A stretch of DNA of 64,000 nt from Halarcobacter sp. (GTDB lineage: Bacteria > Campylobacterota > Campylobacteria > Campylobacterales > Arcobacteraceae): contig OY781089.1 of the NCBI GenBank assembly GCA_963676565.1, positions 224,001-288,000 of the forward strand. Reading direction: 5' to 3'. Each line of letters begins with the position of its first letter. Within the stretch, counting starts at the first letter, position 1. The notes below the pieces were generated by a model, which ran no database searches, was not told where the DNA came from, and saw only the letters and a list, made by a program, of their open reading frames with translations. Shown here piece by piece: positions 7,796 to 15,600 of this stretch. The position numbers were made by a program, and so were the translations under genes.

Positions 7796-10319
7796 CGAAC
7801 TAAATATTGAAATTGAAGAACTTATATCTCAAGGAGCACAAGATTTTGAAATTTCAAAAATTTTTAGAAACTACTTTAAAAACTATGTAAACTCTATTGA
7901 TACTACTCTTGAAACAACAGGAGGGAAAGACTTCTTTGTTCAACACACAAAACACACTGATAAATTTTTAATAGCTTTATACAAATACATATTAAGAAAA
8001 CATTTTAAAAACTATCAACCAATGAGTACCTCAATACCTATTACCTTAATTGCATTAGGAAGTTATGGAAGGGAACAATTGTGTATCTACTCTGATGTGG
8101 ACTTAATGCTTTTATATGAAGATGTTCCAGGTTATAACTTAAGAACTATTATGGAAGATTTTATCACTTTAGCTTGGGATTGTGGCTTAAAACTTGGTTC
8201 AAGGGTACATGAACTAAAGGATATTGCAGAGGGTGTAAAAGAGGATATTACAATAAAAACCTCTATTATTGAATCAAGAATGATTTATGGATCAAAATAT
8301 CTTTGGTATGGTTATGAAAATGTACTTAAAAAGATAAAAGAAACAGACAAAAAACAATTTGTATTAGAAAAACTTGAAGAACATAAACAAAGACTTTTAA
8401 AATTCCCACTTAAAATGGAACCAAATATTAAAGATGGTTATGGGGGAATGAGAGAATCGAATATGGTATTTTGGATGGCAACAGTTATCCATGGAGTTTA
8501 TGATACAAAAGAGCTTATTGGTCAAGAGTTTACAGAAGATGAATACAAAAAATATAGAGCTGCTTTAGAATATATTTTTCAAGTAAGAAATGCTTTACAT
8601 AATATCTCAAAAAAGAAACTTGATGTTGTAAATTTTGATATCTTGCCAGAACTTAGTACAAAATTAGGTTTTAATCATACTCCACGTTTAACTAAAGAGC
8701 GTCAGTGTATGTCTAAACTTACTGAATCTTTACATAGGATACATCATTTTTCATGCACAATGGTTAAAAAATTTACAAGACAAGTTTTATTTGAAAAAGA
8801 GAATATATCTAAACTCAAAAAATATAGATTTAAAAAAAATCTTTATATTATTGATGATAAATTATATTGTTCTTTTTCAAATAAACCAAAAACTTTAAAT
8901 GCCTTAATTAAAGAATTTATTGAACTTCCTGATACAATTAAAGCTTTTGATAGGTCATATCTTTATTATGTAAGTAGAACTAAAATTCCAAGTAAACAAA
9001 CTAAAGAGTTAAAAAAGAATATAAAAACTTTATTATATAAACCAAATTTGTATCCACTTATAAAGATGATTTATAATGGTAGACTTTTTCAAGCAATTTT
9101 ACCAATAGGTAAAAAAATTGTAAATCAACCTCAATTTGATGGCTATCATCAACACCCTGTTGATATCCACTCAATAAAAACACTTAAAAAATTAGAAGAG
9201 ATAAAAGACCCTTATGTTCGAGAAGTTTATGACTCAATGGATGAAAAAGATAGAGCTTTAGTTAGACTTGTTGCCTTACTACATGATGTTGGAAAAGGAA
9301 GAGTAGTAGACCATCATATTGCAGGAGAAAAACTATTTAAAAATATGACTAAAGCATTTGAATTCGACCCAATCCATATTCAAAGGGGTGCAGTACTAGT
9401 AAGATACCATAATATGATGAGTAAGTTTGCAACTAGCAAAGATATTTACTCTGAAAAAGTGATTCTAGCCTTTACTGCATTATTAGAAGATGAACTAACT
9501 CTAAAAATGCTTTATGTTGTTACATATGCAGATATTTCTGCTGTTGGTGATAGTGTATATAAAAGTGCAACCTCTTCACTTTTAAGACAATTATATCTTC
9601 AATCTTTACCTGCATTTGAAAATAAAAATCTATTAAATGAGAATGTAAGAAGACACAAAAAAGAAGAAACAATTAAAAAATTAAAAAGATATAAAGAGTT
9701 GTCTCAAATTAAGAAGAAAAAACTTATGTATATTTCTTCAAATCAAATTTTCTTGCAACTTAGAGCAAGTGAAATCATGGATATTGCCCTTGATGCATAT
9801 GAGGTTAAAGATTTTAAATATGAGATAGATAATACAAAAAATCTAAGAATAAAAATTATTAGAGCAATACCTCTAAACTTGGGTTATATGCTTGGTAAAT
9901 TAGAGTTTTTAAATATCTCAACATTAAATATTTTCAAACTTTATGACGATAAAAAATACTTTGAAATTAGATTTGATGAAGGAGTTGAGGAAGGGGATTT
10001 AATCTATATAGATAGTGTTATAAAAGATTCATTTGATATGAGTAAAAAAACTAAACTTCTTTCACCTGAAATAAAAAAAGAAAATATCACAATTGATTGT
10101 AATCACTCAGCATATCTTGCTTCTATGCACGTAGTTGCTAAAGATCAAAAAGGTCTTTTTGCTTATATTGCAAAGGTATTTGATGATTTTGAAGTTGAAA
10201 TTGAAAGTGCAAAATTGAGCTCTATGAAAAAAGTGGCAAATGATTTATTCCTTATTGAAAAAGATGGAAACTTTTGTGCAAATCAAGATGAAATCATTGA
10301 ATCCCTTTGTAGCAAATAA
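7788..10319 (+). CDS. glnD: [Protein-PII] uridylyltransferase / uridylyl-removing enzyme
   Basis: NTase motif ALGSYGREQLCIYSDVDL, NIKDGYGGMRE, QFDGYHQHPVDIH, HD motif LLHDVGKG, C-terminal ACT-like DQKGLFAYIA; 843 aa. Confidence 0.92.
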   Translation: MVSELNIEIEELISQGAQDFEISKIFRNYFKNYVNSIDTTLETTGGKDFFVQHTKHTDKFLIALYKYILRKHFKNYQPMSTSIPITLIALGSYGREQLCIYSDVDLMLLYEDVPGYNLRTIMEDFITLAWDCGLKLGSRVHELKDIAEGVKEDITIKTSIIESRMIYGSKYLWYGYENVLKKIKETDKKQFVLEKLEEHKQRLLKFPLKMEPNIKDGYGGMRESNMVFWMATVIHGVYDTKELIGQEFTEDEYKKYRAALEYIFQVRNALHNISKKKLDVVNFDILPELSTKLGFNHTPRLTKERQCMSKLTESLHRIHHFSCTMVKKFTRQVLFEKENISKLKKYRFKKNLYIIDDKLYCSFSNKPKTLNALIKEFIELPDTIKAFDRSYLYYVSRTKIPSKQTKELKKNIKTLLYKPNLYPLIKMIYNGRLFQAILPIGKKIVNQPQFDGYHQHPVDIHSIKTLKKLEEIKDPYVREVYDSMDEKDRALVRLVALLHDVGKGRVVDHHIAGEKLFKNMTKAFEFDPIHIQRGAVLVRYHNMMSKFATSKDIYSEKVILAFTALLEDELTLKMLYVVTYADISAVGDSVYKSATSSLLRQLYLQSLPAFENKNLLNENVRRHKKEETIKKLKRYKELSQIKKKKLMYISSNQIFLQLRASEIMDIALDAYEVKDFKYEIDNTKNLRIKIIRAIPLNLGYMLGKLEFLNISTLNIFKLYDDKKYFEIRFDEGVEEGDLIYIDSVIKDSFDMSKKTKLLSPEIKKENITIDCNHSAYLASMHVVAKDQKGLFAYIAKVFDDFEVEIESAKLSSMKKVANDLFLIEKDGNFCANQDEIIESLCSK

Positions 10320-10426
10320 TAATCTTAAAACAACTAAGTAAATAACTTAATTATTTATTAAGACTTGTAGCATTATAATTTGATTAGAGGATATCTCTAA
10401 TATCATGATATCTTTTAAAAGGATGT

Positions 10427-10744
10427 GTGGTGAAGATGCAGCAAGCTTTTGGGGCAAAAGTTACTACTTTAAAGTTCGAAAATAAATTCGCAACATATGC
10501 TGTATTTTTAAAAAAAACAGCAAATAGAGATCAAAGAATATCACTATTTAACAATTTAAAAAGATTAGTATCAACTGAAATATGGACAAATGAAAACATT
10601 GATTTTATTATTATAGAATTAACTCTGAATAAGAAAAAGTATGTTCAAAATAATAATCTAATCTCATACATTGGTGAAGTACAAATTGATTTAAAAAAAT
10701 TAAATAGTCTAATGACAGGAGATTTCTCTTTAGCTGAAATGTAA
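10427..10744 (+). CDS. Hypothetical protein, first gene of an uncharacterised five-gene operon; weak resemblance to an Inhibitor_I9/subtilisin propeptide fold
   Basis: AAGGA SD before GTG/ATG starts; ends 12 nt before the next gene. The exact start (10427/10430/10436) is uncertain. Confidence 0.55.
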   Translation: MVKMQQAFGAKVTTLKFENKFATYAVFLKKTANRDQRISLFNNLKRLVSTEIWTNENIDFIIIELTLNKKKYVQNNNLISYIGEVQIDLKKLNSLMTGDFSLAEM

Positions 10745-10756
10745 AAAGGATATACA

Positions 10757-11293
10757 ATGAGCGTAGGACAAGAACTCTTAGATGTACCATTACCACAGAT
10801 GGTAGCCGACTTAGCCATGGGTGTAGCTACAGCACAAGAAGCTTTAGATAACAATTCACTACAAACAACATTAGAACTCGCAAAACCAGAAAATGCTATT
10901 AGTTTCGTACCAAAAATTGTAGGAACAATTAATCCTGATACAGGGGAATCAAACATAACACAAGTTGAGGCAAAGGATATTCCACTTATTGCATTTATAA
11001 GACCTACTTGGTATCAGTTTTCTGAAACATCAATTGAAGTATCTATGGATATTAAAACTTCAATGCAAAGGGAAACAAATGTAAAAGTTGGGTTTAAAGC
11101 AAAAGCTGGATGGGGTCCATTTTCTGCTTCCATAAAAACAGATGTTGAACATAATAGAAAATTTGGTAAAGAAGTACATGGAACAAGTAAACTTACTGTA
11201 AAAATGGTTCCTGTACCTCCACCACCTTTATTATTGCCAGAGGTTGATATTCAGGTTTTACAACCAGCTAATCCAACACCACCTGTTAATTAA
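10757..11293 (+). CDS. Hypothetical protein, DUF2589-like
   Basis: AAGGA SD. Helix LPQMVADLAMGVATAQEALD, strand YQFSETSIEVSMDI, hairpin KAKAGWGPFSASI, terminal KLTVKMVPVPPP; clear paralogue of 11365..11841. Confidence 0.7.
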   Translation: MSVGQELLDVPLPQMVADLAMGVATAQEALDNNSLQTTLELAKPENAISFVPKIVGTINPDTGESNITQVEAKDIPLIAFIRPTWYQFSETSIEVSMDIKTSMQRETNVKVGFKAKAGWGPFSASIKTDVEHNRKFGKEVHGTSKLTVKMVPVPPPPLLLPEVDIQVLQPANPTPPVN

Positions 11294-11303
11294 TAGTTTT
11301 ATT

Positions 11304-11331
11304 ATTCATAGTAGAATTTTCTACTATGAAT
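11304..11331 (+). terminator. Perfect intra-operon stem-loop after the first DUF2589-like gene
   Basis: ATTCATAGTAGAA-TT-TTCTACTATGAAT, extendable by flanking GTTTTA/TAAAAC; no U-tract follows. Confidence 0.7.
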
Positions 11332-11364
11332 TAAAACCTTAACCATAGATATAAGGAATATATC

Positions 11365-11841
11365 ATGCCTATACCAAAAGAATATAAAGAGATATCAGCA
11401 AGTTTATCTGATTTCGTGGAGGAGATGTCTTTAGCTATTGCTCAATCTAAAAAAAATTTAGATGAAAGCTCATTGAATACCTTAAAAGAATTAGCAAAAA
11501 CAGATATAGAAATCCCTATCTTAAAACAAGAAGTAACTCAAAATGGAGTAAGGGACAAAATTTCATATGTGAAAGTTTCTGCTTTATCTTTAGGAATGAA
11601 ACCAACTTTTTATGAATTTAGTGAAACTAAAATAGAAGTTTCTATGGATTTAAGCGTTGCAGAAGAAGTAACTTCAACCACAAATACTAAAAAGAAAAAA
11701 CTGTTTGTTAATACTAAAGATATAAAAAATGAAAGGCGATTCGAATCTAATATGAATGCTTTTAGTAAACTATCTATAACAATGGTACCCGTACCTGCAC
11801 CTAATAATATACCTGGGATAATTCAAGATTATGAAAGCTAA
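11365..11841 (+). CDS. Hypothetical protein, DUF2589-like paralogue
   Basis: AAGGA SD. LSDFVEEMSLAIAQSKKNLD, PTFYEFSETKIEVSMDL and SKLSITMVPVPAP align by eye with 10757..11293. Confidence 0.7.
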   Translation: MPIPKEYKEISASLSDFVEEMSLAIAQSKKNLDESSLNTLKELAKTDIEIPILKQEVTQNGVRDKISYVKVSALSLGMKPTFYEFSETKIEVSMDLSVAEEVTSTTNTKKKKLFVNTKDIKNERRFESNMNAFSKLSITMVPVPAPNNIPGIIQDYES

Positions 11842-12070
11842 TGATTTCTTTGGAATAGTTTCAGATTCTTTATTAGATGTCTACAAGATTAACAAAAAGA
11901 TTGAAAAGAATAATCTTTTAATAAAAGATATTGAACTAGAGATGAGTTTCTCTCCTGATTCTGAACTTAAGAATATATCTTTAGCTAAAGTGGAAAATAA
12001 ATTTATGGATAGATATAAAGAGACTAGCTACTTTAATATTAATATAAAAGCATCTGTAAAAAGGAAATAA
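11831..12070 (+). CDS. Small hypothetical protein (helix-strand-strand pattern like its neighbours)
   Basis: Overlaps the upstream gene by 11 nt and ends 1 nt before the next gene; LLIKDIELEMSF strand pattern. Confidence 0.6.
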   Translation: MKANDFFGIVSDSLLDVYKINKKIEKNNLLIKDIELEMSFSPDSELKNISLAKVENKFMDRYKETSYFNINIKASVKRK

Positions 12071-12071
12071 A

Positions 12072-12569
12072 ATGCCAAATTTTGAAAAAATAACAGAGAT
12101 AGAAAGAAAACTTAATACAATTGATAAAAAGCAATTGCAAAGTTTTAAACAGAGTTATAAAATTCAGGAAATAAAAGCTACAAAATTAAGTGATGAAAAT
12201 AAAACCTTGAAAATGGAAGTTAAAAATATAGAAAAGGAAAAAGTAAATCTTCAAAAACTTTTAGAAAAGCAAGAGATTCAACTAAAACAATTTGAAGAGT
12301 TAAAAAAAATCAAACCTCTATATCAAAATGATTTCAATAATTTCATAGCAGATTCAGTAAAAGCATTACAAAACAATTTAGAATCAGATGATGATAGTGA
12401 TTATGAATTTATGATTAGAGATGTACAAATTGAAGCTCTAGTTTCCACAGAAAATCGAAATGGAAAATTATCTTATGTGATTCCAACCTCTACCCAGCTA
12501 AAAGAGATTGATGGGAATAAGTTACAAAAACTGAAATACTCTTTAAGTGTAGTACCAAAAACTAGATAG
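12072..12569 (+). CDS. Hypothetical protein: N-terminal coiled coil plus Trypco/DUF2589-like C-terminal module
   Basis: K/E/Q-rich heptad region (about aa 1-80), then FNNFIADSVKALQ...YEFMIRDVQIEA...KLKYSLSVVP; AAGGA SD. Confidence 0.65.
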   Translation: MPNFEKITEIERKLNTIDKKQLQSFKQSYKIQEIKATKLSDENKTLKMEVKNIEKEKVNLQKLLEKQEIQLKQFEELKKIKPLYQNDFNNFIADSVKALQNNLESDDDSDYEFMIRDVQIEALVSTENRNGKLSYVIPTSTQLKEIDGNKLQKLKYSLSVVPKTR

Positions 12570-12578
12570 TTTTATTAA

Positions 12579-12606
12579 GGAGAAGACTAAAGTTAAAATC
12601 TTCTCC
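12579..12606. terminator. Hairpin between convergent operons
   Basis: GGAGAAGA...TCTTCTCC between the stops at 12569 (+) and 12619 (-). Confidence 0.55.
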
Positions 12607-12618
12607 AAAATAATTTCA

Positions 12619-15600
12619 TTATTGACTCTCTAAAGCCATTTTAGAAGCCAATTTAAAATCTGTTTTTCCACTTCCTAATTTTGGAACATTTTCAACTATT
12701 CTGTATATACTTGGTATCATTAACTTATTATCAAATTCGTCTTTAATTTTGTTTTTCAAAGTAAGTAATTGTTTTTCATCTATATTTGAAATTAAGGCAA
12801 CTATTTTTTCACCCTTTTTTTCATCTTTAATTGAGCTTGTAACAACATCTATTTCATCATTTGGTAAAACTCTTCTAATATTCTCTTCAACTGCTCCAAG
12901 ACTAATCATTTCGCCACCAAGTTTAGCAAATCTTGAATATCTATCAACAATTGTTAAAAAGCCATCTTCATCAAGTCTACCTTTATCTCCTGTTATATAA
13001 TAGGTTTTACCATCTAATTGTTTTAATACCTCTTTAGTCTTTTTCTCATCTTTTAAATAACCTTTCATAACTTGAACACCAGATATTAAAATCATTCCCT
13101 CTTCATTTGTTTCAAGCTCTTTATAGGTATCAGGGTCTACTATTTTAAATGTTGTTCCAGGAATTGGCATACCTACAGTTCCTACTTTTGCCCCAACTTG
13201 AATAGTTCCATCTTTTCCTTTCATTAAAGGCAGATTACATGCTGCAACAGGTGTTGTTTCAGTAACACCATAACCTTCTAAAATCTCTTTATCGAATTTT
13301 GTTTTAAAATCTTCCCTAACTTTTAAAGATAACTTTTCAGCTCCAGCAACTGTAAGTCTTAAGCTTTCAAACATCTGCTTAGTTACCTTTGCATTTCTTG
13401 TATAAAGTCTAAAGAAAGTGGAGGTTCCAAGCATAATTGTTCCTTTATATTTTTCTACTAACTTACCAATTGCATAACCATCAGTTGGATCAGGGTGTGC
13501 CACACAACGAATCCCTTCTATTAAAGGTAAAAAAAGTGTTACAACAGTACCAAATGCATGAAAAAATGGTAATGAGCCAACTATAATATCATCATCATTT
13601 ACATTTAAAATTGCAGCAATTTGTTGAGAGTTTCCTACTATATTTTGATGAGTTAATTCAATACCTTTAGGTATCCCTTCACTTCCACTAGAAAACATTA
13701 TTAAAGCTGTATCATCTTTTTTAGTTCTTTTTATATGTAAATTTTTTAGTAAAAAAGTAGGGAAAACAATCACACTTAATAGAGTTAATAATCCCTTAGT
13801 TTTAGTAATTTGACTTTTCATATCTTCAACATATAAAATTTCACATAAATCTAATACCTCATCAACATCAACACCTTTTTCTTTTAGTTTAACTATAAAC
13901 TTTTGTGAAGCAACAATTGTTTGGATTTCTGCTTTTTTTACACTTTCAACTAAAGCTTCAATGGATGCTGTAAAATTTAAATTAACGGCAACTTTTCCCA
14001 ACATTAAAATTGAAGTATTTAAAAAAGCTCCCCCTGCACTAGCAGGAACTAAAAGTCCAACATTTTGCCCTTTTACTTTTCTTTTTATAATATTTTTGAA
14101 AAGAATTGAAGCTGTTAAAAACTTATAAGCTGTTAATTCAACTCCTGTTGAATCGGCAAAGATTAAATCACCTTTAATCTGCTTTAGTCTATCAAATATC
14201 ATTTCGGAAATAGTATCAAGAGTTTTTGTATGCTCTTTCCAAGAGATTGTTGATAAAGTTTTAACAGCTTTCTTAACTGTAACTATAGTTGCTTTTTCTT
14301 TTTTCATAGCCCTTGAAAAAGATACCGTAACACAATTGGTTCTTTTACTTTTTTTGTATTTTTTATTTGCCCTACTAAACATAGACTCCCATAAACCTCT
14401 AATATAAAAAGCTATAACAGGCACATCTGTCTTTGTTTGTTTTAAAATTAGTTCAAAGCCTCTTTTAAACTCCCCTAAGTGTCCATTTCTAGTAATTCCA
14501 CCCTCAGGGAAAAGTACAACTACACTTCCTTTGTCAAGCTCTTTTGCTACAGTTTTAATAGTCTCTTTACTGGCATCATTAGATATAGGAATTGCTTTAA
14601 AAAGTTTTAGAAGCCAATTTAAATACCATTTTTCATATATTGGTTTGTGCATTACAAATTTTATTTGTCTTGGACTACTCATCAAAATCACTGCCCAATC
14701 TATCCAAGATACATGATTTCCTAAAAGTAAAGCCCCTCCTGAAGATGGAATATGCTTAACACCTTGAACCTCTAAATTGTATTTTAATCCAACAACAAAC
14801 TTCATAAATAATAAAATTAAAGATTGAGGCAATTTATAAATGGTATATGCCATCCCTGCTATTGTTATAAATAGTATTAGATATATTGTATTTAAAGGGT
14901 CAAGATTGTTTAAAGATACAAAAGTTGTGATACTAAGCATTAAAAACATTGCTAAAGAATGAAACCAATTATTCCCAGCTAAGATTGTCCCTAAGTTTTT
15001 CTTTTTAGCATTAAATTGAATCAAAGAGTTTAATGGAACAACAAAAAGTCCACCAAAAATACCAAAAGTTAAAAAGGTAAGAGCTAATAAGCTTGCACTA
15101 TCAACCAATGTAGAAAGATACATCATTACAGCCATACCAATAGCTGCAAGAGGAATAGTTCCAGCTTCAATATAATGTTTTGATAGTTTTGAATATATAA
15201 TTGAACCAATTGCAATTCCAATTCCTGAGGCTGCTATTACACCATTTATCACAAATACATCTGTGATATTTAAATATTGTTTTGCAAAAGATGGGAAAAC
15301 AGCCATAAGACCTTGGGATACTCCCCAAAAAACTGATAAGCCAATAACCGATAAAAATATTATATTATTTGAATAGATTGTTTTTATATTTTTCGTTAAA
15401 AGCTTCCCTTGAAGAAGTGCTTTTCTATCAAGGTATAAACCTTCATTTTTAACATATAAGGTTTTTAATCTTCTTAAAATAACTAATGATACAGCCATCT
15501 CTAAAAAAGCAACTGGGACAATATAATAAGTCAATGGTAAAATCGCATCTAAGAGTTGCTCTTTTGTTGTTAAAACTTGTAGATTATTTGCATTATAAAA

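Follow-up and report, generated by a model that had tools for sequence, protein, structure and literature searches.

Five small genes between glnD and aas in Halarcobacter encode DUF2589-superfamily paralogues and partners of a possible membrane-perforating hetero-oligomer

The five-gene insert and its recurrence

We analyzed a 64,000-nucleotide stretch of the genome of Halarcobacter sp. (GenBank assembly GCA_963676565.1, contig OY781089.1, positions 224,001 to 288,000 of the forward strand), referred to here as the window, in which five small genes, o1 to o5, lie between glnD and an aas-type gene (Table 1). The products of o2 and o3, called A and B here, are diverged paralogues of the DUF2589 superfamily, and together with three partner proteins they make up a module that recurs in Bacteria and Archaea and may act on the cytoplasmic membrane. 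No prior description of the five-gene module was found in the literature searched.

Table 1. Features of the insert in window coordinates
Feature	Position	Strand	Description
Whole inserted island	10320..12618	.	Stretch bounded by the stop codons of glnD and aas; ~2.3 kb
o1 (gene 1, 105 aa)	10427..10744	+	Small ferredoxin-like beta-alpha-beta-beta-alpha-beta protein; alternative ATG at 10436
o2 (gene 2, 178 aa)	10757..11293	+	Subunit A, highly conserved DUF2589-superfamily protein
o2 amphipathic beta-hairpin, codons 109-130	11081..11146	+	Tip G118-W119-G120-P121-F122
o2 Pro motif and Pro-rich variable tail, codons 152-178	11210..11290	+	Invariant P-V-P-P-P
o3 (gene 3, 158 aa)	11365..11841	+	Subunit B, hairpin-less paralogue of A
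o4 (gene 4, 79 aa)	11831..12070	+	Stand-alone mini-domain: helix, strand, hairpin, terminal strand
o5 residues 1-85	12072..12326	+	Coiled-coil region
o5 residues 86-165	12327..12569	+	C-terminal mini-domain, same kind as gene 4; o5 overall 12072-12569, 165 aa
Hairpin between convergent o5 and aas	12572..12613	.	Likely shared terminator; RNA fold -11.5 kcal/mol, z -3.4

The genes follow each other head to tail on the plus strand, with spacers of 12 bp (o1/o2), 71 bp (o2/o3), and 1 bp (o4/o5) and an 11-bp overlap between o3 and o4. By Pfam, the upstream neighbor is glnD (GlnD_UR_UTase at 5.6e-26, HD, ACT), and the convergent downstream neighbor is an aas-type fusion of major facilitator superfamily (MFS), acyltransferase, and AMP-binding domains. 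These coordinates and flanks agree with the original prediction, made from the sequence alone, of five tightly packed, co-oriented genes between glnD and aas, and each motif string that it quoted is present in the translations. Its statement that the proteins lack an enzyme motif, a signal peptide, and a transmembrane (TM) helix likewise held: none of the five reached the cutoff of a Pfam, NCBIfam, or PADLOC family, and no TM helix or signal-peptide core was seen in the hydropathy profiles, the highest 19-residue Kyte-Doolittle mean being 1.17 (in o2; ≤1.17 in all five). In a comparison with a 95%-identical Halarcobacter metagenome-assembled genome (MAG), the whole-gene ratio of nonsynonymous to synonymous substitutions (dN/dS) was 0.18 for o1, 0.09 for o2, 0.19 for o4, and 0.04 for o5, the counterpart of o3 in the MAG having a different length. 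Values as low as these (0.04 to 0.19) indicate that even the 79-amino-acid (aa) o4 is a real gene.

In all five same-genus genomes that lack the module, glnD is followed within 2 to 12 bp by a convergent open reading frame (ORF), namely, an aas-type frame of ~490 aa in four of them and a 295-aa ORF in the fifth (L090). Given that glnD is directly abutted in these genomes, the island consists of exactly the five genes, without an integrase or other cargo. Two same-genus carriers show an identical set of five ORF sizes behind glnD. The host genome, a single 3.34-Mb contig, has o2 and o3 as its only DUF2589-like copies. A profile of A and B found matches in 3 of the 151 genomes of the family, counting the host, and in 2 of the 21 other genomes available for the genus.

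Beyond the family, relatives of o2 numbered 578 at an E value of ≤0.001, the best 120 of these 578 being 54 to 95% identical, and those listed belong to Campylobacterota, several proteobacterial classes, and archaea, including Haladaptatus and “Ca. Methanohalarchaeum.” An exhaustive profile search returned 1,167 representatives at an E value of ≤0.001, 622 at ≤1e-10, and 42 at ≤1e-30. We scanned one genome per species (185,579 species genomes) for the gene pattern, which yielded 208 candidate stretches, of which 170 were confirmed, or about 1 in 1,000 species genomes, and the best 80 loci were analyzed. The five-part module recurs, in a patchy manner, across at least 14 bacterial and archaeal phyla. 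Partners were found by clustering all ORFs near the 80 loci and comparing the cluster profiles (hhalign). Genes like o2 (A) and o3 (B) are both present in 80 of 80 loci, with 67 of the 80 second paralogues assigned to the B family by score; gene-1 families occur in 77 loci (c2 in 69, c10 in 8), the gene-4 family c3 (~165 aa) occurs in 47, and gene 5 is represented by c4 in 41, c11 (the o5 family) in 8, and the haloarchaeal c6 in 17. The partners thus co-occur in other genomes, as the original prediction of a joint system presupposed. In the haloarchaeal form (L010, L013, L015-L018, L021, L025, L029, and others), gene 1 is placed after gene 5, and 15 haloarchaeal loci have more than one ORF that scores as A type, owing perhaps to an additional gene copy or to ORF calls that overlap.

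The tree of A mixes phyla, its 14 phylum labels requiring 19 changes against a minimum of 13 (Chloroflexota alone, 8), and places the window in a 10-row clade of Campylobacterota and Thiotrichales (Shimodaira-Hasegawa approximate likelihood ratio test support of 100, from a quick tree only). We surveyed 89 of 100 listed flanking ORFs from 17 lower-GC loci, omitting 11 from two Coleofasciculus loci that are syntenic with a third, and found an unrelated mix of transport, metabolism, and regulatory genes. The mixture of phyla on the tree and the unrelated neighborhoods indicate, at the level of sequence comparison, that the module is transferred horizontally as a unit. Among 72,556 plasmid records, a single one matched, a nonmobilizable Sphaerotilus megaplasmid. 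On it, the same five genes, each labeled “hypothetical protein,” are flanked by a gluconolactonase gene on one side and ilvD on the other. A tblastn search of 50,697 phage records with o2 gave 0 matches, and 17 DUF2589-type and accessory proteins had no match in PHROGs, where the sole hits were to a fused lectin domain.

Very patchy occurrence and horizontal transfer would suit a role in anti-phage abortive infection, in which infection would be sensed by the coiled-coil and mini-domain proteins and A, once released by them, would kill the cell by perforating the membrane. Defense is also the role of Pepco (Trypco1/Trypco2, PF19493/PF19631), which in Avs and vWA-MoxR conflict systems acts as a β-barrel pore effector activated by a protease (bioRxiv 10.1101/2025.11.14.688446; eLife 2020, PMC7159879). 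Such a role, which would be a variant at the level of purpose of the membrane-perforating reading weighed below, is in our view quite unlikely. In its favor, three of the 17 surveyed loci have defense- or mobile-looking neighbors (a TIR-WD40 protein with an integrase, Uma2, and PIN, respectively); against it, these amount to only 4 of the 89 flanking ORFs. The window's own insert lies between glnD and aas and not in a defense island, no protein matched PADLOC-DB v2 (the sole hit, DruC at an E value of 0.022, fell on the o5 coiled coil), no protease or NTPase sensor recurs, and A is nearly frozen across phyla, unlike most defense proteins. The locus with the TIR-WD40 protein and the tyrosine integrase, in a Phototrophicaceae MAG (L078:103-5379), is the only clearly defense- or mobile-like neighborhood of the 17. 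No peptidase or murein hydrolase recurs among the 89 flanking ORFs either, M13, M3, and transglutaminase-like proteins each being found in one separate locus.

Homology of the module proteins

The paralogy of o2 and o3, already noted in the original prediction, is clear from BLASTP (E value of 4e-18, 30% identity across 145 residues) and from the comparison of their family profiles, famA and famB (hhalign, 100%). The o2 protein is laid out as an N-terminal helix, amphipathic strands, a VPVPPPP motif, and a variable tail, and the first ~35 residues of A are almost invariant from bacteria to archaea. Across lineages (572 pairs with A less than 75% identical, from 41 loci holding all five standard parts), median identity is 70.9% for A, 51.3% for B, 27.3% for gene 1, 29.7% for gene 4, and 22.1% for gene 5. 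This gradient would fit the layout proposed in the original prediction, with a major subunit, minor subunits, and a coiled-coil part.

What sets A apart from B is a β-hairpin. In 100 family-A sequences, residues 109 to 130 show a near-perfect alternation of hydrophobic and polar columns (hydrophobic share of, e.g., 89% at position 109, 1% at 110, 84% at 111, and 3% at 112), and strand 93-101 alternates in the same way (100/0/100/4/100/0/100/6%). Of the 100 A proteins, 80 have the hairpin tip G-[F/W]-[G/A]-x-[W/F], which none of the 68 B proteins examined has; the equivalent region of B is shorter and polar. Both A and B end in a terminal strand, the Pro motif, and a variable Pro-rich tail, which has 22 residues in o2; P152, V153, P154, P155, and P156 are invariant in 24 sequences. 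One relative, P0121 (227 aa), appears to unite A and B in a single chain, as two stretches of it were matched. Structure prediction for o2 with AlphaFold2 (AF2) from a 24-row alignment gave an unusable model (predicted local distance difference test [pLDDT] score of 52, lowest in the hairpin region at 28 to 33), a Foldseek search with this model found nothing better than an E value of 0.6, and a sequence search of the PDB with the A profile gave 0 hits at an E value of ≤10. The prediction of an o2-o3 complex (score 0.01, mark 0.32) says nothing for or against an interaction.

The original prediction had proposed a resemblance of this layout to DUF2589, and profile-profile comparison confirmed it: against 15 canonical PF11655 proteins, drawn from 9 positive genomes of 301, famA aligned with a probability of 96.3% (E value of 1.9e-9, 154 columns) and famB with 86.5% (E value of 4.6e-6). 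In the ESM Atlas, 29 of the 30 nearest clusters are DUF2589. The Pfam model PF11655 (gathering threshold of 23 bits) gave no hit to o2 or o3 at an E value of ≤1; below threshold, it matched 7 of 24 A relatives (best E value of 4.4e-5) and 1 of 67 wider relatives (21.5 bits). These profile matches indicate that o2 and o3 are members of the DUF2589 superfamily by real homology.

Canonical PF11655 genes form adjacent pairs in 8 of the 9 positive genomes. Like them, A and B are adjacent, diverged paralogues without a signal peptide or TM helix, homologous to them over the whole domain, and the Gly-aromatic hairpin tip is limited to the A-type copy, where by eye it reads GWGCFS, GWGMFS, GFGPFK, GWGPIS, or GWGPFS in the canonical proteins. 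Unlike the window proteins, which end in VPVPPPP and a tail, the canonical proteins end in a helix (…MPEGLARV…), and the three other fixed partners of the window module, which has no hydrolase, contrast with the hydrolase linkage of the canonical pairs. In scans of canonical neighbors that covered 23 ORFs, 29 of 48, and 67 of 86 ORFs, a murein hydrolase abuts the pair in 6 of 9 loci (L120, L121, L122, L124, L125, and L126). These hydrolases belong to five families (Amidase_3, GH25, GH108 with PG_binding_3, GH19 twice, and phage lysozyme), and at least 4 of the 6 lack an N-terminal hydrophobic segment, while one has a membrane anchor. Hydrolases without such a segment suggest an arrangement in which a membrane lesion is needed, and the canonical pair with its murein hydrolase looks like a holin-less lysis or release cassette. 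Regulators of the AraC or LuxR type adjoin canonical pairs in at least three loci, and one canonical locus adjoins a Tle1-like phospholipase. The neighborhood of RebB genes given for DUF2589 in the original prediction was not seen; murein hydrolases stand there instead, and no Reb family appeared when Pfam was run on the five proteins and the two flanking genes, or among the neighbors scanned. In the literature searched, DUF2589 occurs only in gene lists, namely, a listing for AF0414-AF0417, induced on lactate (PMC3949148), and a table entry (PMC11402942); PF11655 occurs nowhere, and no description of the module or of a DUF2589 function was found in a search that lay outside subscription journals and bioRxiv supplements.

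Wider relatives of A and B (67 scanned of 150 listed), including P0123, P0185, P0198, P0221, P0238, and P0264, carry further domains after the Pro motif, namely, PASTA, Big_2, He_PIG, Laminin_G_3 (a ConA-like lectin), or a pilin head, or have OmpA inserted in the core. Fusions of A-like cores to glycan- or murein-binding, receptor-type domains (Laminin_G_3, Big_2, He_PIG, PASTA, and OmpA) could point to a released antibacterial pore-former, with A-type proteins attacking other cells from outside and B as a self-protection partner, and the murein hydrolases beside canonical pairs, together with the Tle1-like phospholipase, would be in keeping with this. We consider it very improbable: neither a receptor domain nor a signal peptide is seen in the A protein of the window, which also lacks a partner for secretion; genes for lysis or export are missing from the module; and the very high conservation of A speaks against an arms-race toxin.

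For the last two genes, the original prediction had proposed the same layout as in o2 and o3 in reduced form. The part of this that links genes 4 and 5 stood at the level of family profiles: the N-terminal ~95 residues of gene-4 proteins match the gene-5 domain that follows the coiled coil (c3 versus c6, 95.3%, E value of 2e-8), the gene-5 families match one another (c4 versus c6, 96.2%; c4 versus the o5 family, 96.3%), and the merged mini-domain alignment is co-linear. The link to o2 and o3 is weak, the mini-domain profile aligning co-linearly with the N-terminal half of A at an E value of 0.0034, and pairwise BLASTP found nothing that links o4 or o5 to other module proteins. MAFFT places o4 and 7 relatives against the first ~95 residues of c3 proteins (profile link weak, E value of 0.022), which indicates that o4 is a short form of the ~165-aa gene-4 protein of most lineages, cut down in the Campylobacterota/Thiotrichales clade. 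The long coiled coil of the original prediction was recovered in o5, where residues 1 to 85 show heptad periodicity, with a hydrophobic peak at 3.5 residues (0.87, versus ≤0.32 at other periods), 40% charged residues, and 2 Pro/Gly; its matches to coiled-coil families were all below threshold. In a Pfam scan covering 30 of 42 sampled cluster members, haloarchaeal gene 5 contains PASTA in 5 of 5 proteins and HhH (HHH_5/DUF4332) in 4 of 5. This PASTA domain is present although the hosts have no murein.

The likeness to Trypco/Pepco domains that had also been proposed recurs below threshold and is weak. Among the subthreshold Pfam matches seen in gene-4 proteins, Trypco2 is the most frequent (8 of 50, with an alignment that left out five members longer than 300 aa; lowest E value, 0.011). 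It also appears in 5 of 24 A proteins (best E value of 0.024), and no window protein reaches 24.2 bits with PF19631. Against a small alignment of 8 cyanobacterial Trypco2 proteins, the merged mini-domain profile aligned over 90 co-linear columns at an E value of 3.6e-4 and a probability of 36.7%; famA versus Trypco2 gave an E value of 0.025, and DUF2589 versus Trypco2 directly gave 0.097. A homologue search with the gene-4 alignment returned 20 proteins, all of the family itself and none with a Pfam label, and hence no bridge to Trypco2, and an ESM Atlas search with the C-terminal domain of o5 gave no lead (best score of 0.76). The mini-domain of o4 and o5 is likely a reduced DUF2589/Trypco2-like domain, judging from these profile alignments. 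In a module-bearing Chlorobium (L092, G152:C4:272564-272809), a separate 177-aa protein encoded elsewhere passes the Trypco2 cutoff at 25.1 bits.

The o1 family is linked to the upstream-gene family c2 (hhalign, 96.9%, E value of 1.4e-10), and Pfam gave no hit among 6 gene-1 members scanned. An AF2 model of o1 from 54 sequences (pLDDT score of 80.8) shows a ferredoxin-like α/β sandwich. Its fold matches are generic (Foldseek best E value of 7.7e-3; VIA best Z of 7.7, all within the noise band of the tool), and the heads of both searches, within this noise band, are subtilase pro-domains, I9 inhibitors, ACT domains, and NapD, with VIA listing a fungal protease pro-peptide (Z of 7.7), the ACT subunit of AHAS (7.3), POIA1 (7.1), and the PCSK9 pro-domain (6.8). 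An assignment of o1 as a protease pro-domain or I9 inhibitor, which a motif likeness seen by eye had suggested, is not claimed.

Possible functions of the module

The hairpin of A, the DUF2589 homology, the tail, the hydrolase neighbors of canonical pairs, and the precedent of Pepco are most economically explained by a membrane-perforating oligomer. We tentatively favor, while giving it somewhat less than an even chance, a reading of the module as a regulated membrane-perforating hetero-oligomer, with oligomerization and membrane insertion derived from sequence features and analogy. A would be the working part, with its small-residue-rich N-terminal helix, amphipathic strands, and ~22-residue hairpin with an aromatic-glycine tip, followed by the rigid VPVPPPP motif and a disordered Pro-rich stretch. 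B would provide the same frame without the hairpin, o4 and the C terminus of o5 would be a cut-down version of the N-terminal half of this frame, mounted in o5 on the coiled coil, and o1 would contribute a small ferredoxin-like fold as used by pro-domains, small chaperones, and ligand-binding regulators. A, probably with B, would assemble as a soluble β-rich oligomer; on some signal, the A hairpins would enter the cytoplasmic membrane and form a β-barrel-type lesion, and the capping, scaffolding, or restraint of this membrane step would fall to B, both mini-domain proteins, and o1. The biological purpose could be controlled release, programmed death, or defense. β-Pore-forming proteins insert amphipathic β-hairpins of such a kind into membranes. 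The envelope-type domains fused to A relatives and the PASTA domains of haloarchaeal gene 5 were also counted in favor of membrane perforation.

Pepco forms SDS-resistant 9- to 10-mer β-barrels that have amphipathic basal helices, and cleavage of its Pro/charged C-terminal tail turns it into a toxic pore (bioRxiv 10.1101/2025.11.14.688446); this 2025 preprint was the only on-topic find on Pepco effectors. Like the window proteins, Pepco is a small, signal-less helix-plus-strands protein in which a disordered, Pro-rich tail follows the terminal strand. Unlike Pepco, the window module has no neighboring trypsin- or caspase-type peptidase, STAND, or vWA sensor, and the absence of a protease from the locus, also noted in the original prediction, is borne out by Pfam, which found no peptidase in the insert. 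A and B are also larger and have an extra long hairpin, and a single effector gene contrasts with a five-gene stoichiometric set, the homology itself having a probability of only 37%. A second comparison is with holin-endolysin and type 10 secretion systems, with which the module may share, as the hydrolase neighbors of canonical pairs suggest, a cytoplasmic, signal-less, membrane-breaching component. Holins, however, are α-helical TM proteins, whereas the five window proteins have no TM helix; no murein hydrolase lies in or beside the module (insert and 89 flanking ORFs); and the module is also found in haloarchaea and has no match in the phage records or PHROGs. A literature search on holins and β-barrels found no paper on a DUF2589-like family.

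Several points weigh against membrane perforation. No structure supports a barrel, the AF2 model of A being poor and the fold search empty, and the hairpin arms have only ~9 to 10 residues each. Alternating strands are equally needed by a two-layer β-sandwich or a polymer interface. A, at 70.9% identity across phyla, is far more conserved than expected of toxins or holins. By family scans and the flank survey, the module has no protease, murein hydrolase, or recognizable sensor, the link to Trypco2 is below significance, and haloarchaea keep the module yet have no murein. Toxicity, membrane binding, and stoichiometry, like the hetero-oligomeric filament, tube, or pore of the original prediction, are proposals made from the sequences.

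The main alternative, which we rate as lower and view with some doubt, is a self-assembling structure away from the membrane, in which A would polymerize into a cytoplasmic filament, tube, cage, or coat on a hydrophobic interface. B and the mini-domain proteins would then be minor, cap, or nucleator subunits and the coiled-coil protein a brace or tether, and the hydrophobic face of the hairpin would pack on neighboring subunits or a nonaqueous phase rather than a bilayer. The conservation gradient is what a tightly packed major subunit with looser accessories would give, and the near invariance of the first ~35 residues of A is in line with it. The module has no toxin-immunity logic, trigger, or enzyme, and its neighborhoods consist of ordinary metabolic genes; failure of AF2 on the A monomer is common for obligate polymers, and the C-terminal add-on domains of relatives would fit a surface that displays the tails.

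Gas vesicles offer an analogy for such a structure. Their major subunit, GvpA, is a conserved small protein with a helix and an amphipathic hairpin, GvpJ and GvpM are its paralogues, and GvpC is helical, GvpA and GvpC providing a comparable case of a conserved major and a looser accessory protein. The module resembles them in having a conserved small major subunit, diverged minor paralogues, and a helical or coiled accessory, and in its occurrence in bacteria and haloarchaea, but it has no sequence relation to them and no partners of the GvpN/F/L type. PF00741 (Gas_vesicle) matched nothing in 5 module-bearing genomes, which, as control genomes were equally silent, is not evidence of absence and counts little against a polymer. 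Further points on that side are that the closest characterized, if distant, relative, Pepco, is a membrane pore, that canonical DUF2589 pairs beside signal-less murein hydrolases point to membrane breaching, that the fused domains are of envelope and not cytoplasmic type, and that the module has no nucleotide-binding or assembly factor.

Membrane perforation, if correct, could extend to the whole superfamily. In this broader proposal, which is speculative and rather unlikely as it stands, DUF2589-A would define a prokaryote-wide class of signal-less β-hairpin perforators, with a two-gene form that replaces holins and a five-gene form that is a protease-independent gated machine exchanged as a unit between bacteria and haloarchaea. 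The canonical two-gene form would be a holin substitute that releases cytoplasmic murein hydrolases. In the five-gene form, A and the hairpin-less B would be joined by a pair of mini-domain caps, an arm formed by the coiled coil, and a chaperone resembling a pro-domain, and the whole would open the cytoplasmic membrane in a controlled manner, whether for release or for programmed death.

We found no characterized system that matches the module in family scans, PADLOC, or the literature, so that its description in the original prediction as uncharacterized stands. We group it with the small β-rich assembling proteins of the DUF2589/Pepco kind, although the chance that it is of a more distant kind is real. 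A is unusual in being ~71% identical between members from at least 14 phyla and from both prokaryotic domains while being rare and unnamed; conservation of this order is normally the sign of a core machine or of a structural lattice that is tightly packed. Should the hairpin be used as proposed, the module would represent a new, protease-independent way of opening membranes and would, with the canonical pairs linked to hydrolases, provide a first function for the entire DUF2589 superfamily. Should A polymerize instead, the five small soluble parts would make up a new self-assembling protein material. Being small (2.3 kb), self-contained, and portable, the system is directly testable.

Expression signals and antisense frames at the locus

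Upstream of o1 lies a 107-bp AT-rich leader (window positions 10318-10426) with an imperfect palindrome at ~10384-10418 that overlaps the ribosome-binding region; the predicted folding of the leader hairpins is not significant (z of -2.1). A promoter scan was uninformative (14 sites versus 13.1 expected), and no convincing promoter was identified in it. At the other end, only 1 of 200 shuffled sequences folds as well as the hairpin between o5 and aas, which a consensus terminator scan did not report.

Three oligo-dT RNA runs gave 0 to 1 reads and are uninformative on expression. In metatranscriptome data for window positions 9300-13600, contigs 94 to 97% identical to the window, from a related strain, span o1 and most of o2 at a depth of 2.7 to 6.8, and aas is covered as well by 92%-identical contigs at a depth of 9, while o3 to o5 are uncovered. 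These contigs hint at transcription of the first genes, with DNA carry-over being possible.

Long antisense ORFs overlap o2 and o3 in all 80 loci (in the window, 10645-10956 on the minus strand) and form a cluster of 401 ORFs, all of them opposite the gene strand. Most likely, they arise as a side effect of the conserved coding sequence and are not genes.

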